A DNA stretch of 64,000 nucleotides from Candidatus Latescibacterota bacterium (lineage in GTDB: Bacteria; Latescibacterota; UBA2968), in contig OZ242010.1 in NCBI GenBank assembly GCA_965204745.1, forward strand, positions 544,001 through 608,000, given 5' to 3'. Position 1 is the first letter of the stretch; each line of letters begins with the position of its first letter. The translations under genes were made by a program, and so were the position numbers. The notes under the pieces were generated by a model that ran no database searches, had not been told where the DNA came from, and worked only from the letters and a program-made list of their open reading frames with translations. Below are positions 3,084-18,729 of this stretch, piece after piece.

Positions 3084-3369
3084 AGTTGGAAGAATTTTTC
3101 TCCAAGTCACACATCGCGTATGTGTCGCCCAGTTCAAAGGGCTTTCAGAACAGCCCTCAGAATGCACACCTCTTTTTGAGACATGTCATCCATCTTGGAG
3201 AAATAGGCCGGGTAACTCTCTTGTCCCGCATTGTGTTCGACCACGACGATAGCGATGCCCTTTCCGTTGCCCTCTGACAGACATCGAATAAACGCTGTTT
3301 GATTTGCGCGTCTGTTGTGCCCAGGCTCAGGTTGATGATAGGGCAAGAGAGGCTTTGACTTTGCTACGC

Positions 3370-4017
3370 TCAGTCCGAATCAGATTTTTGGCGTGCGCCT
3401 TTCTCAACAATCGAATTAAAAAAAATATTTGCGAACATCATTCCTAAAAATAAAACGTTCAACGCAGATAGAATAGCAGTCGAAAGCCTTATATGAGGCG
3501 CACTCAACATCCATAAGCCGTGTAACACGGCAACAAAAAAGATAAAAATCGCGCTCTTCCAATACCGAAACCCCAACAGCGTGCCGCAATTTTTACAAGG
3601 CCATGTTTGACAAAAAAGCGTATTCCCCCTATGGCGCAACCCAACGAGATGCCCACACTTGGGACACGCAGAAATGTTTTTCATAACTCTTGGTGTATAT
3701 TCGGTAGCCGACTTCTCAACAATTAAAAAAAGAAAAATGCTCACTAAGAGATCGAAAAAAATAATGCTTGCGACAAATAGACCCATCTGGAAAGGCGTTA
3801 AGGGCCTAAGCAAAAAATACAAGAATGCGGCACACACAAGGAGCAAAAGGTTCAAAATCAGGCGTTGCCGAGGATTAACTTCCAATAGAGCACCACAATT
3901 TTTACAAGGCCAGTGACGACCAAAAATGCTACCAGCCCTCCATTTGTGCCACCCCCATCCCCCAACGGAATGTCCACACTTTGGACATGTGTAAATGCTT
4001 TTTATTTTTCTCGGCAT
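3370..4017 (-). CDS. Membrane protein with two tandem CxxC-(19-23)-CxxC zinc-ribbon plus 2-TM units (Cxxc_20_cxxc-like)
   Basis: CPKC-23-CKNC plus hydrophobic hairpin, then CPKC-19-CKNC plus hydrophobic hairpin; ATG 4017 with GGAG. Confidence 0.75.
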   Translation of the reverse strand: MPRKIKSIYTCPKCGHSVGGWGWHKWRAGSIFGRHWPCKNCGALLEVNPRQRLILNLLLLVCAAFLYFLLRPLTPFQMGLFVASIIFFDLLVSIFLFLIVEKSATEYTPRVMKNISACPKCGHLVGLRHRGNTLFCQTWPCKNCGTLLGFRYWKSAIFIFFVAVLHGLWMLSAPHIRLSTAILSALNVLFLGMMFANIFFNSIVEKGARQKSDSD

Positions 4018-4036
4018 ATCGTTGACTCCCAAACGC

Positions 4037-4250
4037 TCAGGCTGAATCAGATTTTTGACGGGTGCCTTTCTCAACAATCGGAATGACAAAAATTCTCGCT
4101 AAGTGGACCAAAAAGAAAGAGCCTATAATAAATAGATTCACATTCAAAATAGTTCTCCGAGGCTCAATCCATAAGTAGAGCAATATGGCAAACATAGGGA
4201 TCAAAATCAGGCTCTGCCAGTAGCTAAATCCCAAAATCGTACCGCAACTT
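4037..4250 (-). pseudogene. 5'-truncated third copy of the CxxC membrane unit
   Basis: SCGTILGFSYW...IVEKGTRQKSDSA matches NCGTLLGFRYW...IVEKGARQKSDSD; no start codon or first CPKC; abuts the ACP stop codon. Confidence 0.75.
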
Positions 4251-4514
4251 TCAGGTGGCAGTCGCGTCTTCAAGCGCGGTGCGGACATAATCGGTCATTG
4301 TTTTCACGCTATCGAACAGTTCCACACGCAAATCTTCATCGGGCACTTCAAGGCCAAATTCTTCTTCCAAGCCCACAATGATCTCGATCGTCGCCATTGA
4401 ATTGAGGCCTAAACCACCGCCAAAAAGCGCGTCTTCAGCACCGATTTCTTCTGGCGTCACTTCAAGAGACAAGGAGCGAATAATGACCTGCTTGACCCGA
4501 TGTTCAATGGACAT
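4251..4514 (-). CDS. Acyl carrier protein
   Basis: 87 aa, acidic; GLGLNSMATIEIIVGLEEEFG with the phosphopantetheine Ser retained. Confidence 0.9.
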   Translation of the reverse strand: MSIEHRVKQVIIRSLSLEVTPEEIGAEDALFGGGLGLNSMATIEIIVGLEEEFGLEVPDEDLRVELFDSVKTMTDYVRTALEDATAT

Positions 4515-4522
4515 AAGCCCTC

Positions 4523-6436
4523 CTATGGGATTGCTGCCGCTGGCTGAGCCTCTGAGAAATACTGAATCGCGGTTTCAACGAGACGCCGTTGACCCGTCTC
4601 GGACAGAATCTCTATCGCGGGCAATTGAAACGTGTCTTCCAATGTGTTCAGGTGGCGATCAATCTCGTGTCGTGCCATCTTTTTCGGGGTGATCATACTG
4701 CGCCCATACGCGGTTCGGATGTGCTTTTTGCGGTTGCCCATCGCCAGCAACAGGGTCGGGGCTTTGCACACGGCGCGTATCCCATCTATCGTATCGCGGA
4801 TGTACGCTGTCGCATCGATGCTGTTGACCACCAAAACGCAAGCATCCGGCTTTACGCCGAGCAAAAACGCCAGCGACGACAAACAATGCGTGCTGTGTTC
4901 TTGGACATCATAAGGTATCGTGCCCGATTGAGACCCCGTCAGGATGATGTCGGGCCGGCGGTGCTGGCAAATCTCGCGCATCTTGTAATCCAAATACGGC
5001 GCGTAGTGTTGAAAGGGAAGTTTGAGCGGAGAAGCATAGCCCATTGGAAAGGCGGCATCCATGCCAAATAAGCGCGCATGGTGCTCGGTGCCGATTTGCC
5101 CAACCTCATAGCCTTCTTGTTGCAAGCGCGCCCGCAACGCGAGTTGCAGGGTGAACTTGCCCTGTTGCGAACTCGTGCCCATCACCGCGAGCACGGGCAC
5201 ATCCACGGGCGGGAGTGCCTTGAAATTTTGAAGTGCCTGTGTGCGTTCTGTTTTGGAAATGTGCGGATAGGCCAAGCGCAGGCCCTTTTTGTCCGCCGTG
5301 TCATACAGATCGCCGTAAGCGGTTGGGTCAAGGGCTTGCAAACTGAACACATGGCAACCCGCATCCAGCGCCAATGCGATGTGTTCTCTGAGCAAATCGC
5401 GCTTGCGAACGCGGGAGAGTTGATCCACATAGCCCAAGATGAGCGTATCCGCATCTGCCATTGCGCGGCGGATATTTGGGCTGATACGCAGATTGGCAAC
5501 CGGCGCGTCGATCACTTTGCCCGCATCTTTGCCGCCCATCCCCTTGCCGAGGGGATCGCCGACGCCCACGATCTCAAAATCGAGCATCTCGCGATAGCGC
5601 ACCAAGCTGTGCATCTCTTTGTTGTACGGATACAGCGCGGCTTTTTTAATCCATGAATAATCCGCTTGAAAAACGTTTTGAGAGGCCGGGCGACTGGTCT
5701 TTGCCGTATTCTGGTTCTTCGGCATTCTTATGGCTTTTTCCTGTAACAATAACCGAATTTTTTGAACAGAAGAATTGGGGTGCTGGTTCAGCAAGCGCGC
5801 CACAATGCCCGCGATATGCGGCGCGGCAAAGCTATTGCCGCCGGTCATGATGTATTTTCCGTTGAGCCAGCAAACGCGCTGTTCATCGCCACGCGCCACG
5901 CATTCGATGTGCTGATCCTTGCGATAGTAAAATCCGTCTCGGTCATAAATCGCACCCCCCGTCACCCCAAGCACTTCGGGAAACACCGCCGGGTAACTCT
6001 CGCCCCCGTCATTGCTCTCTGCCGCCACGAGAATTATGCCCGCCTCGACCGCCTTGCGACACACGGCTTGAAGGGATCGCTTAAACGTCACATCCGTTGT
6101 GCCCAAGCTCAAATTCACGACATTCATCGCGTTGTCAATACACCACTGAATCGCCGCGATCAACGCCCGGCCATCTGCCATCAACGAGTCGTCAAAAATC
6201 CGCACGCCATACAACGCCGCGTCCGGTGCCTTCTTCCGAATAATCCCCGCGCACGCCGTGCCGTGCCCCGCACAATCGACATAATCATCTGACACCATTA
6301 CCTCGCCACCTTCACCCATCCGAATCCGAACCCCACCCGCAATATCCCCCACCCCCGAATGCGATGCGTCTATGCCACTGTCGATAATGGCAACCCGGAT
6401 GCGAGTGTGATTTGCTTTACCCATGACATTCTCCAA
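4523..6436 (-). CDS. S8 subtilisin-like peptidase fused to a C-terminal DUF1611/TIGR04066-like P-loop domain
   Basis: Catalytic triad IIDSG, GHGT, GNSFAAP; C-terminal LYPYNKEMHSLVRY and P-loop GTSSQQGKFT; no signal peptide. Start could be the ATG at 6424. Confidence 0.85.
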   Translation of the reverse strand: MENVMGKANHTRIRVAIIDSGIDASHSGVGDIAGGVRIRMGEGGEVMVSDDYVDCAGHGTACAGIIRKKAPDAALYGVRIFDDSLMADGRALIAAIQWCIDNAMNVVNLSLGTTDVTFKRSLQAVCRKAVEAGIILVAAESNDGGESYPAVFPEVLGVTGGAIYDRDGFYYRKDQHIECVARGDEQRVCWLNGKYIMTGGNSFAAPHIAGIVARLLNQHPNSSVQKIRLLLQEKAIRMPKNQNTAKTSRPASQNVFQADYSWIKKAALYPYNKEMHSLVRYREMLDFEIVGVGDPLGKGMGGKDAGKVIDAPVANLRISPNIRRAMADADTLILGYVDQLSRVRKRDLLREHIALALDAGCHVFSLQALDPTAYGDLYDTADKKGLRLAYPHISKTERTQALQNFKALPPVDVPVLAVMGTSSQQGKFTLQLALRARLQQEGYEVGQIGTEHHARLFGMDAAFPMGYASPLKLPFQHYAPYLDYKMREICQHRRPDIILTGSQSGTIPYDVQEHSTHCLSSLAFLLGVKPDACVLVVNSIDATAYIRDTIDGIRAVCKAPTLLLAMGNRKKHIRTAYGRSMITPKKMARHEIDRHLNTLEDTFQLPAIEILSETGQRRLVETAIQYFSEAQPAAAIP

Positions 6437-7141
6437 CTAATGCTGTGAATCCATAATTTTGCATTCCACATCAATGATTTCCTTTTTTTTCCAATCAACC
6501 AATACGCGCAATGTGTCATCAAACTTTCTTGGCTTCCAGCGATATTCAAAGACACTTAAGCCATTCACCTCAACAGCATCATACCCATAACTGCGTTCGT
6601 TCTGGAGGGTGCGAATATAATCATGGCGGGCAAAATAGGGTTGTGCATCTATATGCTTCACAATAGCTGGCAGATAATTTTCCATCAAAAGATTGGTGCC
6701 TGGTATTGCACGAAATCCATATCGTTTGTAGAGTGGAATCCCTTTTCGATTGAATGACCAAGTCGTAATTTCGATCCGTTTGCATTCAGATTCACAGGTG
6801 GTTCTCAAACACCTATCTGCCAGTGCAAGCCCAAAAACCCCGCGTTTCTGAAAGTCGGGATGGGTTTCTACATGAGAAAAAATGATCACATCTGGCTCAG
6901 ATTTCTTTTGGCTTATCTTCATGGATGAAATGATGCGGTGATTTCGCTTGAGTAAATAGATGACCGCGTGCTCTAAGTTGCTCAAATTCTCAATGATTTC
7001 TTCACAACTGGGTAGGCATTCAGGGTTTGGCTGTCTTTGAAACGCATTGGAAGACAAGGACCAATGTCGTGTCTGAATACCTCTTAGAAAGATAGCATAG
7101 TGGTGTAAATCGTTTTCGCTTAAGGGCTGAATGTGATACAT
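6437..7141 (-). CDS. GNAT-family acyltransferase
   Basis: Motif A VETHPDFQKRGV and motif B TWSFNRKGIPLYKRYGF. Confidence 0.85.
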   Translation of the reverse strand: MYHIQPLSENDLHHYAIFLRGIQTRHWSLSSNAFQRQPNPECLPSCEEIIENLSNLEHAVIYLLKRNHRIISSMKISQKKSEPDVIIFSHVETHPDFQKRGVFGLALADRCLRTTCESECKRIEITTWSFNRKGIPLYKRYGFRAIPGTNLLMENYLPAIVKHIDAQPYFARHDYIRTLQNERSYGYDAVEVNGLSVFEYRWKPRKFDDTLRVLVDWKKKEIIDVECKIMDSQH

Positions 7142-7168
7142 TTTTGTTCTCTTTGAGAAATTGAAAAA

Positions 7169-7908
7169 TCACTTGCTGACGATATAGCCGCCATACAGAA
7201 ATCCAATTAACGGTGCAATAGTGACATTGAAATTTATAGCCCCATGAAAAACCATACATAACAAAAGACTGCGTTTAGATTCGTAGAGATAAGTCAAGAA
7301 ACAGGAAAGTACAGCTAATAATATCAGGTGATGAAAAAATATGGACCAATAACCACCCGTAACCAAAAAATATAATTGTTCATGAAGACCGACGAAGACC
7401 AAAACAGTAATAATATAAGCCCTTACTCTTCCATATCTTGTCCTGATTGCCCCAAAAAATAAACCCCGAAAAAGAAGTTCTTCTCGAACTGGAGTCAATA
7501 TAACAAGTCCGAGAAGATCAAATAGACACTCAATAACAAAGCCTGGAGGCTGCGAACCAAAACCTACTGAAAAATACAAGGGTAAATTATATGCTGTTAG
7601 ACCTATACCTACATATATCCACAAGAAGAACACTTTTTTTGGGGAACTCCATAATATATCATCTTCCGCAACCCAAATTGTCCGAATCGGTAAAAAAAAG
7701 AAAAAATTAATAGAAGATTTATTCCTTCTACAACAACTTGCATAATCACATTAGATGACTGAACAATCCACCACACAATTTTGTTTTCTAGAAAAACAAA
7801 AAAACCCCAGATCAAACCTTTTGCCAAAGGCACATGGAGTGTTAAGGGCCAGTTCTCCTGCATAGATTCTACTTTGATAGATTCTTCCATTGAGGATCCT
7901 TGGGCCAT
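7169..7908 (-). pseudogene. CPBP (CAAX protease/Abi) intramembrane metalloprotease, frameshifted at an A7 tract
   Basis: EELLFRG, FVGLH and HGAIN motifs in ORF 7169-7633; N-terminus in ORF 7609-7908; one extra A at 7634-7640 would fuse them. Confidence 0.8.
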
Positions 7909-7927
7909 ATAAGCACTCCAATTCAGT

Positions 7928-8721
7928 TTAATCCGGTTTGTTGCTCAACATCTTAAAACTTTCGTCCATCAATAGAAATTCGAAAGCAGGCTCTTTGTAA
8001 ATTTTTTCTTTTAAAATGGGATCCCACCGGAGTGCTCTTTTTAAGGAATAAAGAGTTAGTTCTTTATTTTTTATACCCCCATATACACGAGATCGGTTAT
8101 ACCATGCATTACCATTTTGGGGATTTAGTTCAAGTGACCGATCTAACGCAACGATGGCTTTGGGTAATCTGCCTAACTCAAGAAGCAGAGCTCCTTTATT
8201 GTTCCAGGCATCAGAATATTTGGTGTCGAGTTCTAAAGCACGATCAAACGACTGGAGTGCTTTTTCCAATTCGCCCAGTTTCATCAAAACAGCACCTCGA
8301 TTATTCCATAATATAGATGCTCGAGGTAGTATTTGAAGTGCTTGATCATAAATTTCAAGTGCCGTTTTATATTGACCCAAACGTATGAGAATATCCCCTC
8401 TGTTTATCCAATAGGTCATATTTTCAGGATCGGCCTCTGTTGCACGTATATACATTTCAAGTGCGTCTTGATTTTTTTTTGCTGTTTGTAAATCAAACCA
8501 CATCTGAACCAGGCAACCGCATTTTGGGGATTTAACTCAACTGTTTGACGATAGACTTTCAGAGCTTCTTCAAATGCACGAATCCGCCAAAACTTATTTC
8601 CCTTCTCAAACAAAATTTGGGATTGTTCAAGAGATTTATACGGTTGAAAAATAAAATTCGTAAAATAATAGAAAACAACGGCATATACAAAGGGAAGGCA
8701 CAATAGCAAAAACTTTTTCAT
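7928..8721 (-). pseudogene. Membrane-anchored TPR protein, frameshifted at an A9 tract
   Basis: N-terminal TM plus first TPR in 8416-8721; further TPRs (WINRG, WNNRG, WNNKG, WYNRS) in 7928-8503; one extra A at 8472-8480 restores the frame. Confidence 0.85.
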
Positions 8722-8949
8722 CGCAACATTCTCCTATCCATACGGGCAAAAAAATAAAATATTTATTTAGTATGAGATCAGCGCGCTGAGAATGTTGAAA
8801 TGTATTGAAAAGAGCCTTCGGGGGCTGAGAAAAGTGTTCACAGGTTTTCAAGTTACCCAAAGAAAGGGGCAACGAAATACAGTTTGGGCAAAAACTCGTG
8901 AACAATTCACAATGCGCGGATCGTCAAAATTTAACGTTACCCTCCCAGA

Positions 8950-9366
8950 TTAATGGGTACGTTTTCTGCCGAGATTATCATACTCTTCCTGATTAGGCAC
9001 AATATAACCCGGAGGAGGATGAACACTGCTTTCTACCTCTCCACCTCGAGCTATAGCTGTCTCTATAGTCACCACTGTATTAGTGAAGGGAATTGGGAAA
9101 CTGTAAGTCAGGAATAGACTATCATCTGTGACACCAATTGGCGATCTGGCTTCGATTCTACCGGTTGTACGTCCACCTGGAAAATGCAAGGTACCTTCAA
9201 ATCCCCTAGGTGTCATCCCATGCGACACACCAGTCGAAGTTGAGTCAGCATTGACAGCCTTCTCAGCATCAGCCTGTGCATCAGGGTCTTCTTCCTCGCC
9301 AGAATAGGCAATAACACTTTCCAGATTGCCCATCCGTTGAGGTTTGTACAACTTTCTGATTTCCAT
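8950..9366 (-). CDS. Putative exported precursor A (138 aa) with conserved leader
   Basis: AAGGAG RBS, ATG 9366; MEIRKLYKPQRMGNLESVIAYSG...ADSTS shared with precursor B; directly after the ABC exporter. Confidence 0.75.
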   Translation of the reverse strand: MEIRKLYKPQRMGNLESVIAYSGEEEDPDAQADAEKAVNADSTSTGVSHGMTPRGFEGTLHFPGGRTTGRIEARSPIGVTDDSLFLTYSFPIPFTNTVVTIETAIARGGEVESSVHPPPGYIVPNQEEYDNLGRKRTH

Positions 9367-9421
9367 TGTGTTTCTCCTTTCGAAAAGAATGAATGTACAG
9401 CCCCCGAAGGCCAAATTCATA

Positions 9422-11137
9422 TCATATACTCGCTGTTTTTTTATGCAAATGTGCATACACCCCATCTTGCATAGCCAACTGCTCGTGCGTGCCCTGCTCT
9501 GCGATCTGTCCCTCATCCAGAACCACAATTTCATCTGCGGTTTGAATCGTTGACAGTCGATGCGCGATGATCAGCGTGGTTCTGCCTTGTCGCACGGTTT
9601 TTAACGCCTCTTGGATGTGATACTCCGATTCCATATCCAAGGCGGCAGTGGGTTCGTCCAAAATCAGAATCGGCGTGTCCATCAACAGCACACGCGCCAG
9701 TGCAACGCGCTGTTTCTGCCCCTCCGACATCTGTGCTCCCTGTTCGCCCACCAATGTTTCATAGCCCTCCGGCAATGACGCAATGAAGTCGTGAATGTAC
9801 GCGGCCCGCGTCGCGTCTTGAACATCTCGCATGGGTATCTCGTGCCCAAAGGTCAAGTTGTCTAAAATACTGCCTTGAAACAAGGTACTGCCCTGCATCG
9901 CAAACCCCACCTGTTGCCGAATGGATTTCAAGCGGTAGTTCCGAATATCGTACCCATCGAGCGACACATAGCCCTCTTGCGGATCGTAGAATCGCGGGAT
10001 CAATTTGGCAAGCGTCGATTTGCCTGAGCCGCTTCTGCCGACCAATGCAATGGTCGTTTGTGCCGGGATATGCAGGTCAATATGGCGCAACACGGGTTGC
10101 CCTTCATGATACGCAAAGCTCACATTGTGAAAACCGATCTCGCCTCGCACTTGCGGTAACGCGGGCATGTCGGGACGATCCTGAATTTCTGGCCTCAACT
10201 CATAGACTTCAAAAAAGCGATTGATGCGAACCAATGCCATTTCAACTTGTCCTACCAGGCCGATGAGATTGCCGATGGGACCGTAGAGATAGCCCACATA
10301 ACCCGAAAATGCCATATAACTGCCCAGGGAAAGATTGCCGTTTAGAACCTGCGTCCACCCATACCAGCCATAAGCCAACGTGCCCGCTGTTTTCACCAGC
10401 GATCCCACAAAATTGAAGCCGCCACTTAAATGCGTCGATCTGATCCGCAGTTTCGACACATCGAGAAAGATGCCTCTGATCTTGTGATAAAACGCGGCTT
10501 CCAACCCTAGGGCTTGCACGGTTCGGATACCCGAAAGCGATTCGTAGGACTTGGCCGAGGACTCAGCCGATGCTTCGGTCACTTTTTTGGAAATTCTGCT
10601 GAGGTACTTTTTTGAAACCATAATCAACACCGTATCAAATGGCAAGACCGCCAAACTGATCAAAGCCAGTTTCCAATTGATGTAGAGCAAAATAGGCGGG
10701 AAAATGAGCAACTGGAGCGTGTTCATAATCAGGCTGTTCACCATCCCGATGGTGCTGTTGACCGAACTGTCCATATCCCTAAATCGAGATAGGATTTCGC
10801 CTGTCTGCCGGTTGTCAAAAAAGCTGAAATCCAGTGATTGCACATGAGAATAGAAGCGCGATTTGAAATCCAACCCCATGTTGACGCCGACATAACGCGC
10901 AAAATACGTGCTCAACAATCCCGTAAATCCCAACCCCGTCGAAAGCACGGCCCCCAAAATCAGAATGAAGGTCAGGAGCGTGTGGTCTTTGTGGGGATAC
11001 ACATCATCGATCAACACTTTGGTAATGTATGGCCCTGGGATTTGCAAGAACATGACCATGATGCCCACGAGGAACGATTGAAAGATAAACCGCCAATACG
11101 GCCGGAGCATTTTGATGATCTTAAATATCTGACGCAT
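9422..11137 (-). CDS. ABC exporter (TMD plus NBD) without a C39 peptidase domain
   Basis: Walker A GRSGSGKS, variant signature MSEGQKQR, Walker B ILILDEPT, IIAHRLST; N-terminal TM domain. Confidence 0.95.
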   Translation of the reverse strand: MRQIFKIIKMLRPYWRFIFQSFLVGIMVMFLQIPGPYITKVLIDDVYPHKDHTLLTFILILGAVLSTGLGFTGLLSTYFARYVGVNMGLDFKSRFYSHVQSLDFSFFDNRQTGEILSRFRDMDSSVNSTIGMVNSLIMNTLQLLIFPPILLYINWKLALISLAVLPFDTVLIMVSKKYLSRISKKVTEASAESSAKSYESLSGIRTVQALGLEAAFYHKIRGIFLDVSKLRIRSTHLSGGFNFVGSLVKTAGTLAYGWYGWTQVLNGNLSLGSYMAFSGYVGYLYGPIGNLIGLVGQVEMALVRINRFFEVYELRPEIQDRPDMPALPQVRGEIGFHNVSFAYHEGQPVLRHIDLHIPAQTTIALVGRSGSGKSTLAKLIPRFYDPQEGYVSLDGYDIRNYRLKSIRQQVGFAMQGSTLFQGSILDNLTFGHEIPMRDVQDATRAAYIHDFIASLPEGYETLVGEQGAQMSEGQKQRVALARVLLMDTPILILDEPTAALDMESEYHIQEALKTVRQGRTTLIIAHRLSTIQTADEIVVLDEGQIAEQGTHEQLAMQDGVYAHLHKKTASI

Positions 11138-11147
11138 GGAATCGTTC
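11105..11147. repeat. 43-bp direct repeat, copy 1 (start of ABC gene)
   Basis: 40/43 identical to 12771-12813. Confidence 0.9.
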
Positions 11148-11483
11148 TAAAAAAAAGGTATTCGACAAATGCTTGAAGCACGTCATCTGTCATGGCTGAC
11201 GTTGTGCTTATGCGTTGGTGGCATGGTTTCAAGTCTGCCTCGTAGTGCTTTGATACAGGACCTGCAAGACCTGCTTGCACATGTTGCACGCGCAGGCAAG
11301 AAGCAGACAGGCGCGACCACAACTTAGTCATCCACCAGCGAAAAATGATAATGGGTGTTCAACGCTACCCGCTTGAAACTTCGGTAAGCATTGAACACCC
11401 AATGATCAGAGGTCATCTATTGCATTCTGCGAGATCGGGCGTCAATGATCAAACGGAAATTTCACCTGATCTTTTGACACCGC

Positions 11484-11903
11484 CTACTTATCCTTCTTCT
11501 TCTCCTCCTCTTCTTCTTCCCCTGTTTCGATTTCCGGTGCCCGGGGCGGACTTTGGTCGTGGCAACTCCTATAGCAAGATGTGTATGTTCTCGCTACTGC
11601 CATGACTCCTCCAGCAGCCAAGGCAGATCGCCAATTCCTATTGTTTGCGTATACTCCTCCAGCAACAGCAGCAGAATAAAGCAAAACACTCTCGGCAGCC
11701 TCGTAATGTGCCTCGTCAATTGCGGCCTGCCTTGGGTCCACATCCGTTGGAATCTGAGGCTCAACAGAAGTTGAATCCGGAGAAGTTGTATCCGGTTCGG
11801 CAATTTCAAATTCCAAACCCTTGTCTCCATCTCCAGAATATGCCATAACACTATGAGTGCTATCGGCATACGGAGATGGCGAGATTTTTCTGAGAGATCT
11901 CAT
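11484..11903 (-). CDS. Putative exported precursor B (139 aa) with conserved leader
   Basis: AAGGAG RBS, ATG 11903; MRSLRKISPSPYADSTHSVMAYSG...PDSTS; Ala/Gly-rich hydrophobic core and acidic/basic tail. Confidence 0.75.
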   Translation of the reverse strand: MRSLRKISPSPYADSTHSVMAYSGDGDKGLEFEIAEPDTTSPDSTSVEPQIPTDVDPRQAAIDEAHYEAAESVLLYSAAVAGGVYANNRNWRSALAAGGVMAVARTYTSCYRSCHDQSPPRAPEIETGEEEEEEKKKDK

Positions 11904-11941
11904 GGTTTGCTCCTTTCTTGAAAAGTGATGACGACCTCTGA

Positions 11942-12682
11942 TCACAACAATAAAAATTCACTATAGTGATATGCCACTATTGTGACTAAATTACCGATGG
12001 CGTGAAACACAAAGCTGGCAGTGAGTGAATTTGTGCGTTCTAACAAGAATGCTGTCACCACACCAACCAAAAATACGAAGATAAGACCCGTAAGATCAAT
12101 CATCCAAACATGGAAAAATGAAAAAATAAAGGCTGAAATCAAAGTTGATATAATACTATCATTTTGTTTGCGTAAGGTTCTATACAACAGACCGCGAAAG
12201 CACAATTCTTCGTCAAATGGACCTAAAAGACCCGTAACTATTATCTGGCCATAAAATATCGCATCAGAAGAATATTTGGGGGGATTACCAAAATTTATGT
12301 CTATCCCGGACTCTAAAATAGACACTATAGCACCGAAGACGAAGGCATAAATGATATATCGAAACTGAGTCGCAGGATATATTGCTCCCCAAATTAACTT
12401 GATCGATAAATCCACTTTCTTACATTGCCAGATAAGGAATGCAAGAAAGGCAAGCGTCAAAACTGGAGGAAGAGATATTGCCCCAATATGCCCCATATCC
12501 TGGAATGTTAAACCCCATCCATTGGCGTAATTAAAATATGCTATCAACAAGCCAGACAGTGCAATAACAACCAAACCAATTACACCGTACAAAACTAACC
12601 AAATAATTACTCTTTTGATAGACCATGGGAGTTGTGGTTGCAGGACATCATCAACTTCCAAAGTATCTTTGTTGTCTTGCAT
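11942..12682 (-). CDS. CPBP (CAAX protease/Abi) intramembrane metalloprotease
   Basis: EELCFRG, FSFFH and HAIGN motifs; multi-TM; AT-rich. Confidence 0.9.
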   Translation of the reverse strand: MQDNKDTLEVDDVLQPQLPWSIKRVIIWLVLYGVIGLVVIALSGLLIAYFNYANGWGLTFQDMGHIGAISLPPVLTLAFLAFLIWQCKKVDLSIKLIWGAIYPATQFRYIIYAFVFGAIVSILESGIDINFGNPPKYSSDAIFYGQIIVTGLLGPFDEELCFRGLLYRTLRKQNDSIISTLISAFIFSFFHVWMIDLTGLIFVFLVGVVTAFLLERTNSLTASFVFHAIGNLVTIVAYHYSEFLLL

Positions 12683-12770
12683 TTTTGTTCTCCCATGAAC
12701 TGCTATGGCAATTGTACATTAAACCCTATCATGCTTTGCTTCGTTATAGGCTCTGCTCGTGCCGCACCCT

Positions 12771-12813
12771 GAGCATTTTGATGATCTTGAATATCTGACG
12801 CATTGAATCATTC
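12771..12813. repeat. 43-bp direct repeat, copy 2 (orphan ABC start MRQIFKIIKMLR)
   Basis: Lies right after the hlyD stop; gives a 19-aa ORF at 12744-12803 whose first 12 aa equal those of the ABC exporter. Confidence 0.9.
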
Positions 12814-14104
12814 AGTTTCTGGCCTGTACATTTTCGGGCTGTTCTTCCAAGCGATAAATCTCAGGACGCCCTATTTTGCCCACTGTCTTGAGGAACTTTC
12901 GCCACAACAAGTTGACGATTGGGCCGCGCTCGGTCACGATTTTGGCGTCAACGCCCATGCCGTACGCGAGTGAATAAACGCTTTTGCCATCCGATACATG
13001 TGGGTCTATCACGCGCATGGTCACGGGATAAGTAGCATCTGCGCCACCACTCGGCAACAGACCCGCACCAAGGGGTGTCGCGGCTTCGGGCTTTCGCGGC
13101 ACGTCGGTCACCTCGCCCTCAAACACCTTGTATTCCATGTGTGGGAATGCGTTCACATACAACCGCACCCGCTGTCCCGCTTTCACCTTGGGAATATCCA
13201 CTTCTTGAATCATCACCCGCGCTTGCCAGCCATCCAACGCGGCCAATTCAATTACGGCTTCACCTGCCAAAATGCGGTCGCCCACGCGCTTCTCCAAATC
13301 GCGCGTCAACACGGTTCCCGAAACAGAGGCGCGAATCTGCATCTGTTCCAACTGCGTTTTGAGCAAGCGATAGCTAACCCGTAATTTTTCATCCATCTGC
13401 GCCATCGTTTTCAGTTCCTGTTTGCGATTGTCCAAGGCGGCCAACCTGCGCTTTGCACGCTCAATTTCTACTTTTGCACCCGCTACCCGCATCTGCTGTA
13501 ACCGAACCGGGATCAACGTATCCACAGGGGGACGCGCACTGCCATCTATGCGAAAGGGCAGGTATTTGTGGTAAATCTGATACTCTTTGCGAATCTGATC
13601 CAACTGTAACTGCGCGGTCTGATGCGCGACTTCTGCCCGTTCAATCTCGGTTTCCAAAACCGCGCGCTCGCGTTGCAACTCGACGGTCAACGCCTCGCGA
13701 CGACTTTGGTTCATCGCCCGTTCCTGTTCGAGTTGCGCCAATTCCGTGCGTAAATCCGCGTCATCCAACGTCAGCATCAAATCCCCTTGTTCAACCGCTT
13801 GCCCGTGTTGCACATGGACGGTTTGGATCAAGCCAGCGCGTTGGGCTTTTACTTCACAACGCGCACTGGGTTGCACGCGCCCTCGACCTTCAACCGTGAT
13901 TTCCATGCCCAAATGCCACCCCAACAGCCCGATGAGTGCGACCATGCTTCCCACAACACAGAGAATAATGAGCAAGAAATAGCGCACAAACCGAAAACCC
14001 ATCCCCGAAGTTGCGTGTGCTTCCGGACTCTGTGCGTGTGCAGACACCTCTCGATGTTGCGTGTGGTAGCCATTGCCCACTATCACCTGTTCCCCAAGTG
14101 CCAT
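12812..14104 (-). CDS. HlyD-family membrane fusion (adaptor) protein
   Basis: N-terminal TM, lipoyl half-motifs (VQHGQAVEQGD; IRASVSGTV), long coiled coil, AFPHMEYKVFEGEV. Confidence 0.92.
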   Translation of the reverse strand: MALGEQVIVGNGYHTQHREVSAHAQSPEAHATSGMGFRFVRYFLLIILCVVGSMVALIGLLGWHLGMEITVEGRGRVQPSARCEVKAQRAGLIQTVHVQHGQAVEQGDLMLTLDDADLRTELAQLEQERAMNQSRREALTVELQRERAVLETEIERAEVAHQTAQLQLDQIRKEYQIYHKYLPFRIDGSARPPVDTLIPVRLQQMRVAGAKVEIERAKRRLAALDNRKQELKTMAQMDEKLRVSYRLLKTQLEQMQIRASVSGTVLTRDLEKRVGDRILAGEAVIELAALDGWQARVMIQEVDIPKVKAGQRVRLYVNAFPHMEYKVFEGEVTDVPRKPEAATPLGAGLLPSGGADATYPVTMRVIDPHVSDGKSVYSLAYGMGVDAKIVTERGPIVNLLWRKFLKTVGKIGRPEIYRLEEQPENVQARN

Positions 14105-14257: not shown

Positions 14258-14842
14258 TCATGTTAAACTCTCTACGACAGCCCTGATTCCGGCCGTCACA
14301 CCTGTTTGAATCGTTTCCAACGCCATGCTCGGTTGGGACGCGCCCGCGAGTTCTGGCGTGGGTGGTACGTGGATAAATCCCACAGGCGTATCGATCCCCT
14401 TTTCCGCGAGCAGATGCAATGTGGAATACAAGATGTGATTGCACAGGAACGTGCCCGCCGAATACGTCAATCGCGCAGGCACATTGGCCTCGCGCATTCG
14501 CCGAACCATCAACCGAGTCGGCAGGGTGGAGAAATAGGCATCGGGTCCCCGGTCAACAATGGGATAATCCACATCGTCTATCACTTTTAGGTTGATGCCA
14601 ACGCGCTCGACATGCAGCGCATTCGCCGAACCGTGCAAGCCCAAAGACACCACAGCCGCGGGTTTGTACTCGGCAATGAGCGGGGCGACTTTGGCAATAT
14701 CATCGCCGTGACTCACCGGCAACACGGTTGAAACGATTTCGCATCCCCGGATCAAAGCACCATCCAACGCCTCGGCCACAACGCCCGATGGATTGCTTGA
14801 CCACTCAGCCCAGGGTTCAAAACCCGTCAGTAAAATTTTCAT
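14258..14842 (-). CDS. pcp: Pyroglutamyl-peptidase I
   Basis: MKILLTGFEP, ERVGIN, SAGTFLCN and GFIHVP motifs. Confidence 0.93.
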   Translation of the reverse strand: MKILLTGFEPWAEWSSNPSGVVAEALDGALIRGCEIVSTVLPVSHGDDIAKVAPLIAEYKPAAVVSLGLHGSANALHVERVGINLKVIDDVDYPIVDRGPDAYFSTLPTRLMVRRMREANVPARLTYSAGTFLCNHILYSTLHLLAEKGIDTPVGFIHVPPTPELAGASQPSMALETIQTGVTAGIRAVVESLT

Positions 14843-14887
14843 CAAATAGCCCCTTGATATCCCGTCCCTTTCGTGCGGAACGGTTGT

Positions 14888-15042
14888 CATTAAGAGTAGA
14901 AAGCGAGTGGGAAGCAAGCCGCGACCAATCGCCGCCGACTCATCCATTACCGAATCGCCCCTTAGAACGTGTCTTAAAACAAACGATAGATGCCCCCTCC
15001 TCCGGCTCTTCTCCGCATGGATTCAACGCTTTATTCGCATTG
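14888..15042 (-). mobile_element. MITE built from IS982 ends
   Basis: Begins CAATGCGAATAAAGCGTTGAATCCAT (IS982 left end) and ends GCTTTCTACTCTTAAT (right end); interior homologous to 30297-30438. Confidence 0.75.
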
Positions 15043-17745: not shown

Positions 17746-18729
17746 TTAGGCCTCCGCATCCAACACGCGCTGAAAGGCCTCCAGATCATCCACTTGCACC
17801 GCTGCACGATGCAACCGCTTGAGCCGTTGCAAATCGTTGATAACCGCAATGCGACCGGCGAACTGACCGGCCACACCTGCATCAAAGCGAATCTCCAACG
17901 TTTCTCGGATGCTCTCTTGGATGCCTCGCTCGATGCCCTGCTCGATGCCCTGCTCGATGCCCTGCTCGATGCCCTGCTCGATGCCCTGCTCAATGCCCTG
18001 CTCGATGAACTGTTCCTTGAACTGTTCCTGGACGTGTTCCTGGATCTGTTCCTTGAGGTATTGGGCAAACGATGACTCACGCATAATCGCGTCCATAAAA
18101 CCCTCCTGTAAAAGAATCCGCGTGATGGTGGGCAGATCATAAGCCAACCCACTCAAGACCGCCAAGCTATTCAAATAATTAGCCTTTTCTGCCGGATCCA
18201 ACGAAACCGAATCGCTCCTGCGAACACACTCGCGCAACCAGTCCTCGGAAGCCATCTCCACAGGGTGCTTCATCAACGGCGCGAAAGGAAGCAAGCCCGG
18301 ATGACCACCCTCGAGGATACCTTGCCCGTCTATCTCGGTCAATCGAAGCACCTTGTAGCGCACCAGCACGGGGAAGTCGGCATGATCTTGGCGGAAAAAT
18401 CCTTCATCGCGGCGCCCGGCATCGGGACGCAGGTAGATGACAAAGGCATAGACCGGCAGGCCATAGCGTTCGATGAGGCGGAGGATATAGATCGCCATGC
18501 GAATAGCCATATTCGCGCTGTCGGTGGTTTGAAATTCGATGTGGACCAATGCTTTCTTGCCATCGATCCGCACGCGAATCACGCTATCGACCATGCGCGT
18601 TTCAATCCTCGGGAGTTCGGTGTCGAGAACTTCTTCAATTTCGACATCCTCGCGTCCGAGTGCCAAGTGGACGAGGTCTTGCGGGTAGATGTGAATCAAC
18701 TGCTTGGGAATCGTGTCGTATTCTGCCAT
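17746..18729 (-). CDS. Rpn/YhgA-like PD-(D/E)XK nuclease-fold protein with EQGI repeats
   Basis: VDSVI...HIEFQT...RMAIY motif; C-terminal (EQGI)n. Confidence 0.8.
   Translation of the reverse strand: MAEYDTIPKQLIHIYPQDLVHLALGREDVEIEEVLDTELPRIETRMVDSVIRVRIDGKKALVHIEFQTTDSANMAIRMAIYILRLIERYGLPVYAFVIYLRPDAGRRDEGFFRQDHADFPVLVRYKVLRLTEIDGQGILEGGHPGLLPFAPLMKHPVEMASEDWLRECVRRSDSVSLDPAEKANYLNSLAVLSGLAYDLPTITRILLQEGFMDAIMRESSFAQYLKEQIQEHVQEQFKEQFIEQGIEQGIEQGIEQGIEQGIEQGIERGIQESIRETLEIRFDAGVAGQFAGRIAVINDLQRLKRLHRAAVQVDDLEAFQRVLDAEA
17928..18007. repeat. 12-bp coding tandem repeat (GCTCGATGCCCT)n
   Basis: About six copies encoding EQGI. Confidence 0.9.

Follow-up and report, generated by a model that had tools for sequence, protein, structure and literature searches.

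The closest described counterparts of the system analysed here are the CLI_3235/TIGR04066 cassette, whose original description is reportedly due to Haft and Basu in 2011, and the Qhp route for the export of a small protein. The system lies in a 64,000-nucleotide stretch of DNA from a Candidatus Latescibacterota bacterium (assembly GCA_965204745.1, contig OZ242010.1, positions 544,001 to 608,000), which is called the window in what follows. It consists of two open reading frames (ORFs), A and B, that carry the same short basic leader in front of unrelated acidic bodies (the cargoes), and of the gene cluster around them, which includes an ATP-binding cassette (ABC) exporter, an acyl carrier protein (ACP) and a protein in which an S8 protease domain is fused to a TIGR04066 domain.

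In the extracts consulted on Paenibacillus polymyxa, CLI_3235 precursors share a cassette with a radical S-adenosylmethionine (SAM) enzyme of the TIGR04068 class, a TIGR04066 protein, an ABC transporter, a subtilase and an ACP-related protein (PMC10731318), and the same cassette appears in an extract on Roseburia intestinalis (PMC4573289). The leader of the precursor PapA is given, in the part of the published work available, as LKQINVIAGVKEPIRAYG; it ends in ...IRAYG and is followed by the core Cys (PMC10739248). As regards Qhp, the portion consulted describes QhpE as a cytoplasmic subtilisin-like protease that removes the 28-residue leader of the small protein QhpC before QhpC is exported by the ABC transporter QhpF (PMC7876137).

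The locus in the window resembles the CLI_3235/TIGR04066 cassette, as the extracts present it for the freyrasin pap cluster and SacP23 of P. polymyxa and for R. intestinalis, in that a TIGR04066 domain (scoring below the family cut-off), an ACP, a subtilisin-like protease and an ABC exporter occur together; moreover, the leader plan looks the same by eye, with a basic M-K-K-L-x-K start and an ...x-A-Y-[AGS] end. On the other hand, the locus has no radical SAM maturase, its protease and TIGR04066 domains are fused, its ACP is generic and not of the TIGR04069 type, and HlyD, CPBP, TPR and GNAT genes are added. The cargoes differ as well, being acidic bodies of 117 residues with 0-2 Cys instead of a Cys-rich core of ~40 residues, and the ORFs, of 138 and 139 aa, exceed the short precursor of ~50-100 aa by which CLI_3235 members are recognised. 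With Qhp, as far as the extract goes, the locus would share a cytoplasmic subtilisin-like protease without propeptide, a small leader-bearing protein and an efflux-type ABC transporter, cleavage being predicted here. It differs from Qhp in a QhpE-model score below the cut-off, in a leader of 21-22 residues against 28, in cargoes that are polymorphic and unrelated to QhpC, and in possessing the TIGR04066 domain and the ACP, which are not part of Qhp; neither a QhpD radical SAM protein nor the dehydrogenase subunits turned up in the window, where QhpA, QhpB and QhpG were not searched specifically. No published description of the S8::TIGR04066 fusion or of these precursors was found in the literature searches, the most specific of which covered 12 of 1,187 entries.

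The reading favoured here, to which we give a probability of about 0.7, is that the leader peptides are cut after a Tyr by the cytoplasmic S8 domain and that the 117-residue cargoes are exported through the ABC/HlyD route, the cargoes being probably bacteriocin-like proteins with CPBP proteins as their immunity. The cut site, the export and the toxin and immunity roles are predicted from sequence and by analogy with the systems above.

A shared leader on unrelated cargo bodies

The features of the two ORFs are the following:

8950..9366, minus strand: ORF A, precursor of 138 aa with a basic 21-residue leader and an acidic 117-residue cargo; family A, ending in ...EYDxxGxxxH
9304..9366, minus strand: leader of ORF A, residues 1-21, ending in ...SVIAY; proposed cut after Tyr21
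9374..9379, minus strand: AAGGAG ribosome-binding site of ORF A, 7 nt before the ATG
11484..11903, minus strand: ORF B, precursor of 139 aa with a basic 22-residue leader and an acidic 117-residue cargo; family B
11838..11903, minus strand: leader of ORF B, residues 1-22, ending in ...SVMAY; proposed cut after Tyr22
11910..11915, minus strand: AAGGAG ribosome-binding site of ORF B, 6 nt before the ATG

The initial annotation had aligned the two N-termini without gaps as [IL]RK[LI]-x10-SV[IM]AYSG[ED], and the match is exact (I3-E24 in ORF A, L4-D25 in ORF B); the AAGGAG sites, the lengths of 138 and 139 aa and the positions of the two ORFs on either side of the ABC gene (9422-11137), which it had also reported, were verified directly from the sequence. 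The bodies are indeed unrelated, as had been proposed, BLASTP aligning residues 3-24 alone with E = 0.027. The leaders, built on the plan M-x-x-[RK]-K-[LI] ... S-V-[IM]-A-Y, have isoelectric points (pI) of 9.5-9.7, and the 117-residue, 12.5-kDa cargoes are acidic (pI 4.4-4.7), with calculated masses of 12,515 Da for A counted from Ser22 and 12,604 Da for B counted from Ser23. Neither a hydrophobic or Sec signal peptide nor a transmembrane segment is present in ORF A or ORF B, and neither ORF gives a single Pfam or NCBIfam match even at E <= 10.

Homologues that keep the motif were found among 5.8 billion proteins, 12 of them for ORF A and 13 for ORF B; judged from these homologues, both ORFs are real, conserved genes. 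In family A the residues V18, A20 and Y21 are invariant, in family B V19, A21 and Y22 are invariant or nearly so, and the N-terminus of most members of both families reads ...[SN]V[IL]AYSGEEED. The bodies have their own conserved features, namely a DST-rich block and a C-terminal ...EYDxxGxxxH in family A, and ...QEAHxDA... with a C-terminal Y-x2-C-x3-C-H-D-Q-S-P-P in family B, where H66, Y107, C110, C114, H115 and the SPP are invariant. When the two family alignments are compared with hhalign, 15 columns alone are aligned, around ...SVIAYSGEEED (E = 5.3e-6, probability 86%). Among leader codons, synonymous and non-synonymous differences number 83 and 176 in family A and 11 and 33 in family B, counts that are uninformative. 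DSTS after an acidic stretch 17 or 18 residues long, which had been put forward as common to both substrates, is present in both window ORFs but is not supported as a feature that the two families share: the DST-rich block is conserved in family A, while in family B DSTS is found in the window protein only (1 of 13 rows) and is therefore likely incidental in ORF B.

The leader is tied to one kind of gene cluster. Translated in six frames, the 5.48-Mb genome contains the pattern V[IMLVT]AY[SP][GS][EDG] at three places, two of which are ORFs A and B; both leader ORFs and the single TIGR04066 gene of this genome lie within the cluster, and the leader is found nowhere else in the genome. A leader profile built from four leaders was run on 168 genomes of the phylum and on 1.84 billion representative proteins. 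Convincing matches were obtained in 9 of the 168 genomes, all belonging to the genus of the window (9 of its 21 genomes, that is, the window genome and 8 of the 20 others), and two further matches with E ~0.006-0.008 fall inside long ORFs. The representative proteins gave 15 matches, of which seven were retrieved, six were already in families A and B and two, long repeat proteins, were left out. In all eight genus-mates with a match, the leader ORF stands between the HlyD/ABC genes and the GNAT-S8::TIGR04066-ACP genes; this search, which the initial annotation had suggested, found the motif at homologous clusters (8/8), genomes of one genus not being independent samples. Judged by these results, the leader match is beyond chance.

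The motif DNA is very similar between the window ORFs and among the genus-mates, which would suit a functionless relic of local duplication or of gene conversion between neighbouring ORFs. Such an origin is very improbable, since the motif is kept in two families with unrelated bodies and in nine genomes, always at residues 17-25, and a related leader plan recurs in other phyla beside the same fusion gene.

Among the genus-mates and in the protein libraries, the one leader is joined to at least six different cargo bodies. Type A1 is the A type of the window, A2 is a variant of it that ends in ...SGYCPQCLPH, and B is the second type of the window; type C is a third body, seen in locus L171, type D carries a CxxCH motif (proteins P0148 and P0149), and a further type is a 148-aa protein with a variant leader (L219). 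Type C, the L171 body, is found behind a second leader variant as well (L203 and L218), with 60% identity overall and the leaders as the divergent part. Types A1 and C contain no Cys, and ORF B contains two. As side observations, motifs that look like haem- or metal-binding sites can be seen in type D, with C-x-x-C-H and then D-A-H (P0148, P0149), and in family B, with C-x3-C-H and the invariant His66. In locus L198 (G087:C1:913500-933499), where the cargo is of type C, the match to the fusion falls into two pieces, of 175 and 443 residues, and that to the ABC protein is partial (261 residues), so that this cluster may be decaying.

Each cargo type that could be paired has its own CPBP membrane-protein partner. 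In the genus-mate clusters, some of which hold module A only and others module B only, the A-type cargo is always accompanied by a TPR protein, a small membrane protein and the CPBP homologue 1 (CPBP1), and the B-type cargo always by the CPBP homologue 2 (CPBP2). Locus L197 (G088:C1:3891500-3911499) contains a B cargo, an A-variant cargo and three TPR - small membrane protein - CPBP1 sets without cargo, and at its junctions lie remnants of other genes, one of ABC (122 residues) and two of GNAT (60-65 residues each); by its gene content, this arrangement is evidence of repeated module insertion. A 3.3-kb contig from the sequencing run X2, another sample, shows 8 differences from positions 9402-12000 of the window (ABC gene and ORF B, 2.6 kb), and it diverges exactly at 9402, between the stop codon of the ABC gene and the start of ORF A. 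Past this position its sequence is unrelated to the window, and the minus strand has GGAG, ATG and then Lys codons, which suggests a different cargo gene at the position of ORF A. Runs X2, X3, X5 and X6, all labelled sponge metagenome and from one study, each hold at least half of the sampled words of 8900-12000, and long, nearly identical pieces of this interval were confirmed in X2 and X5.

The proposal of a constant leader with a variable cargo accordingly gains comparative support from the many bodies, the occurrence at clusters only, the presence of type C behind two leaders and the X2 junction. The two analogies offered with it fared differently. In fact, the locus is similar to polymorphic toxin loci in its constant N-terminal delivery part, its exchangeable C-terminal parts, the cargo-less partner arrays and junction gene fragments of L197 and the break of X2 exactly at the cargo boundary; it differs from them in that the constant part has only ~21 residues and is probably removed, and in that no toxin domain can be recognised. 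For the analogy with RiPPs (peptides made by the ribosome and altered after translation), no RiPP-type modification enzyme was identified, and the term polymorphic exported proteins therefore fits better than RiPP.

The gene cluster and its fused protease

All genes of the cluster are on the minus strand, in the order (from high to low coordinates) HlyD, CPBP2, ORF B, ABC, ORF A, TPR, small membrane protein, CPBP1, GNAT, fusion and ACP. Apart from the ORFs listed above, the features are:

12812..14104, minus strand: HlyD-family periplasmic adaptor, assigned by Pfam/NCBIfam; conserved in the cluster
11942..12682, minus strand: CPBP homologue 2 (Rce1-like intramembrane protease homologue), always with B-type cargo; proposed immunity or processing partner
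9422..11137, minus strand: ABC exporter of 571 aa, MsbA/HlyB-like, with ABC_membrane and ABC_tran domains only
7928..8721, minus strand: TPR protein, A module, with its reading frame broken into two; one frame in locus L002
7609..7908, minus strand: small membrane protein of 99 aa, A module
7169..7633, minus strand: CPBP homologue 1, in the module paired with A-type cargo
6437..7141, minus strand: GNAT-fold acetyltransferase-like protein of 234 aa, directly upstream of the fusion gene
4523..6436, minus strand: S8::TIGR04066 fusion of 637 aa, proposed leader protease
4251..4514, minus strand: acyl carrier protein of 87 aa, with the Ser kept at the usual attachment position
3370..4288, minus strand: zinc-ribbon membrane protein of 239 aa, overlapped by a membrane ORF of 83 aa; both probably orphans with an accessory or immunity role

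The N-terminal part of the fusion is a QhpE-like member of the subtilisin-like S8 domains, which scores 157.1 bits with the QhpE model NF049966 (cut-off 165, E = 4e-46, model positions 1-213 of 219), and its C-terminal part is a full-length TIGR04066/DUF1611 P-loop domain (118.8 bits, cut-off 200, model positions 1-360 of 361). The S8 residues D19, H58, S202 and N142 are invariant among 19 relatives. The alignment of the S8 domain places residue 11 onto residue 24 of subtilisin, a beginning that leaves no room for a signal peptide or a propeptide; from these features, it appears to be an active protease of the cytoplasm. Searched on its own, the TIGR04066 domain finds no sequence relative in the PDB at E <= 0.3. 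DgcN of the DUF1611 family is presumably an N-acetyltransferase, which would favour only the more speculative reading given below, and the fusion domain gives no such NCBIfam match.

The sequence AYSG resembles the cyanobactin macrocyclase signature, and the PatA/PatG model (TIGR03895) matches the fusion weakly, with 35.5 bits. Following the logic of PatG, AYSG could be recognised as the C-terminal boundary of the short N-terminal peptide, and S8 would then cut off or cyclise this peptide as the product. This is hardly credible: the score is far below the 421-bit cut-off, the constant piece is the N-terminal one, each family conserves its own C-terminal body, which comes with specific partners, and in CLI_3235 and PapA, as presented in the extracts available, it is the core after AY that is modified.

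Relatives of the fusion number at least 778, and full-length fusions are found in records of Latescibacterota, KSB1, Ignavibacteriota, Myxococcota, Clostridia, Spirochaetota and Bacteroidota; a scan of metagenome contigs with the fusion alignment returned no close relatives. The gene order ABC - fusion - ACP is conserved among the loci, the ACP gene being 3' of the fusion gene in other loci as well. A TIGR04066-like domain occurs in 84 of the 168 Latescibacterota genomes, with up to 7 copies per genome.

As for the exporter, no C39 peptidase domain is detected by Pfam, and the alignment with TIGR01193 starts only at model position 144 (367 bits, below the 524-bit cut-off); the leaders that go with it lack a Gly-Gly motif. 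The ACP matches generic ACP models, TIGR04069 being absent among its hits. The GNAT gene was seen only in clusters with AYSG-type leaders. The window contains no radical SAM gene, since none of the 17 Radical_SAM matches of the genome falls within it, and no enzyme of the TIGR04068 class was found in the genome, where the best match reaches 28.6 bits against a 500-bit cut-off and is far from the window.

Some further observations concern single genes of the cluster. The fusion gene starts with a TTG immediately after the last base of the GNAT ORF (6436/6437), and this abutting junction suggests that the two genes are translationally coupled. The frame break of the TPR gene (7928-8721) is located at an A-rich run near the ...GLIY... 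codons, and the L002 gene is a single open frame of 268 codons; a contig of run X1, which may be the sample from which the window itself was assembled, is identical to the window across this gene. The split may reflect either a true frameshift or an error in the homopolymer. The 239-aa protein is a double zinc-ribbon membrane protein with a weak TIGR04104 match, encoded in a low-GC stretch (42-47%). In paralogous systems at ~50% identity (L209, L213, L216), the ABC gene is separated from the fusion gene by multiple homologues of this protein and of the 83-aa ORF, beside precursors ending in ...PVEAY; because the window has no such precursor, unlike the paralogous systems, the genes at 3370-4288 look like orphan partners.

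The GC content is 35-45% over the cargo and partner genes (3200-4400, 6400-9000 and 11900-12700) and 52-58% in the flanks and in the genes for the fusion, the ABC exporter and HlyD, a mosaic that fits an exchange of modules. A pyroglutamyl peptidase gene (14258-14947) was considered and is probably outside the system, as it is missing from the clusters of 7 of 8 genus-mates and is present only near L198. Beyond the cluster, a 327-aa ORF (17746-18729, minus strand) has [IE]QG[IE] repeats near its C-terminus, mirrored in overlapping frames, and no Pfam match.

Leaders of paralogous systems

Small ORFs with strong ribosome-binding sites adjoin many of the fusion genes in other loci. They start with M-x-K-L-x-K-P, and the leader ends in a Tyr at position ~16-28, preceded by a hydrophobic residue, any residue and then Ala, Leu or Gly, after which the sequences are unrelated. 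To choose the candidate precursors of distant loci, a pattern, a hidden Markov model (HMM) and inspection by eye were used. A strict regular expression gives 6 hits in 27 fusion loci (421 kb) against 0 in 53 S8-only loci (908 kb), and in the 5.48-Mb genome it gives three, namely ORF A and two spurious Arg-rich frames. A looser expression, with 19 hits in the 421 kb of fusion loci against 12 in the 908 kb of controls, is non-discriminating and was not used as evidence. Furthermore, a seed HMM of 11 leaders, both window ORFs included, was applied to another 20 paralogue regions, which total 400 kb and 803 candidate starts; 11 ORFs reached at least 10 bits, one being doubtful, and when weaker hits and manual listing are included, precursor candidates are present in 17 of the 20 regions. 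Among 14,877 candidate starts in the window genome, only the two seeds exceed 10 bits with this HMM (the next best has 9.0). The leader endings, ordered by the identity of the neighbouring fusion to that of the window, are:

Fusion at ~80% identity: leader ending in ...VIAY or ...CIEAY
Fusion at ~59% identity: leader ending in ...AVLAY or ...DVIAY
Fusion at ~50% identity: leader ending in ...PVEAY or ...IA[RC]AY
Fusion at ~37% identity: leader ending in ...RIYGY

Each fusion clade thus appears to have its own leader ending, in a pairing that is descriptive and carries no statistics.

Genuine TIGR04065 precursors, those of the CLI_3235 systems, were found in 6 of the 300 Clostridia genomes searched. 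They consist of M-K-K-L-G-K-K, 5-7 residues, E-T-[VIL]-[EQ]-A-Y-[AS] and a Cys-rich core, which begins 1-3 residues past the Tyr.

Proposed cleavage, export and role of the cargo

According to the reading proposed above, the S8 domain of the fusion would recognise the leader and cut after the Tyr (P1 Tyr, P2 Ala, P4 Val), and the freed acidic 117-residue cargo would leave through the ABC transporter without peptidase domain and the HlyD adaptor, as QhpC does via QhpF. The cut is placed after the Tyr because this residue is the one invariant boundary across all leader variants and similarity stops right after it; moreover, Val at P4, Ala at P2 and Tyr at P1 suit a subtilisin, and the exporter has no peptidase domain of its own. 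Subtilisins prefer a large aromatic residue at P1 and a hydrophobic one at P4. The cargoes would be secreted, bacteriocin-like antagonistic proteins and the CPBP-containing modules their cognate immunity, and this substrate would probably undergo a further step that involves the ACP, the P-loop domain (TIGR04066) and the GNAT protein. Antagonistic proteins with cognate immunity are suggested by how strictly cargo and CPBP module are paired, together with the partner arrays without cargo. Proteins of the Abi/CPBP group have an immunity role in bacteriocin systems.

In fact, class II bacteriocin and microcin loci also have small leader-bearing proteins beside an ABC exporter, an adaptor and CPBP proteins, with cargo and partner modules that vary between strains. 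The locus in the window differs from them in having no C39 domain and no Gly-Gly motif, in the separate cytoplasmic S8 protease that is proposed here and in its acidic, 12.5-kDa cargoes.

Several observations weigh against this reading. In families A and B the S-G-E-E-E-D is kept beyond the Tyr, so that the true cut, or a second recognition step, could sit further downstream. For the cargo families, neither a relative of known function nor a toxin domain can be recognised with Pfam, NCBIfam or PDB sequences (against the last, cargo profiles give nothing significant, the best E being 0.32 for A and 2.6 for B). The evidence for the toxin and immunity roles consists of gene pairing and of the role of Abi/CPBP proteins elsewhere, and the CPBP proteins could be processing enzymes instead; the explanation does not account for what the ACP, TIGR04066 domain and GNAT protein do. 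The scores of ORFs A and B with the seed HMM do not count, both being seeds. In the paralogue regions L202, L206 and L207 no candidate precursor was found (in L202 and L207 with 7000-8900 listed, in L206 by the HMM screen alone).

The likeness to CLI_3235 leaders belongs to the same account. The TIGR04065 model (26-bit cut-off) misses ORFs A and B even at E <= 10; it gives no match for seven related precursors from other loci, and it was not found in five Clostridia or other genomes that carry the fusion, with a best score of 17.4 bits. An HMM made from genuine CLI_3235 leaders only retrieves none of the leaders studied here. When CLI_3235 leaders are compared by hhalign with those of the two window families only, P = 0.003 and the probability is 10%, whereas the broad comparison, with a 25-sequence leader alignment that was itself selected by the seed HMM and by eye, gives P = 5.9e-6 and a probability of 85% over 20 columns, end to end. 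Given this mixed support at the sequence level, the leaders are regarded as of the same kind as those of CLI_3235, and the ORFs are not filed as members of the family; of the resemblance that the initial annotation had pointed out, the architecture holds (a basic start, an x-A-Y end and a full-length TIGR04066 partner domain), and a match to the family HMM is missing.

The conservation of S-G-E-E-E-D in both families, and the acidic residues that follow the Tyr in most leaders of the paralogous systems, would also be expected if the shared N-terminus were a targeting signal that stays uncleaved or is cleaved differently and that the ABC/HlyD exporter or the TIGR04066 domain reads, with S8 acting elsewhere, for instance past the acidic stretch. 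We consider this quite unlikely, because the Tyr is the sole invariant boundary and CLI_3235 cores start 1-3 residues later; besides, the ABC protein has no peptidase domain, S8 is the only protease fused or adjacent to the system, and QhpE offers a precedent.

A different role for the cargo is suggested by the invariant Cys/His motifs, CxxxCH with H66 in type B and CxxCH in type D (P0148, P0149). The cargoes might be exported functional subunits, or cofactor- or metal-binding proteins, matured like QhpC, and the CPBP, TPR and GNAT proteins would then be maturation factors. The S8 domain is in fact closest to QhpE, the ACP, P-loop and GNAT proteins suggest some chemistry on the substrate, and CPBP2 has a weak match to Mrt-type sorting proteases. 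Nevertheless, such a role is unlikely, as cargo types are swapped between close relatives and the cargo-less partner arrays of L197 follow a toxin/immunity pattern and not that of housekeeping genes; types A1 and C, moreover, have no Cys, and the system is present in only 9 of the 21 genomes of the genus.

Returning to leader cleavage and the export of antagonistic proteins, a bolder extension of it can be considered. The conserved S-G-E-E-E-D, the fusion of a protease to a P-loop domain and the constant ACP, with a GNAT protein in AYSG-type clusters, suggest a second step on the new N-terminus. The fusion and the ACP, here with the GNAT protein, could form a two-step machine that removes the x-A-Y leader and then acylates or acetylates the exposed N-terminus before ABC/HlyD export, present in up to seven insulated copies per Latescibacterota genome, each with its own leader dialect. 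It would be an undescribed, radical-SAM-independent delivery platform for polymorphic antagonistic proteins, descended from CLI_3235/ranthipeptide machinery. This proposal is speculative, and on the whole we regard it as doubtful.

As compared with the systems described so far, the system would represent a radical-SAM-less, fused form of the CLI_3235/TIGR04066 cassette, probably working like the QhpE/QhpF route on polymorphic, protein-sized cargo, and it appears greatly expanded in Latescibacterota. The TIGR04066/ACP/subtilase/ABC cassette has so far been known only as a companion of radical-SAM peptide maturases; its occurrence here with no radical SAM enzyme and with a 12.5-kDa cargo indicates that the function in leader proteolysis and export is separable from the cross-linking chemistry, and gives a clean case in which to establish what TIGR04066 and the ACP contribute. 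The 21-residue tag with its dedicated protease and predicted cut at Tyr could serve as a tool for tagging and export. Genome annotation currently overlooks dozens of such genes, as nothing in Pfam or NCBIfam is assigned to the cargo families. Finally, the presence of the domain in 84 of 168 genomes, with distinct leader endings for each fusion clade, suggests that parallel, mutually insulated secretion routes exist in this poorly studied, uncultured phylum.

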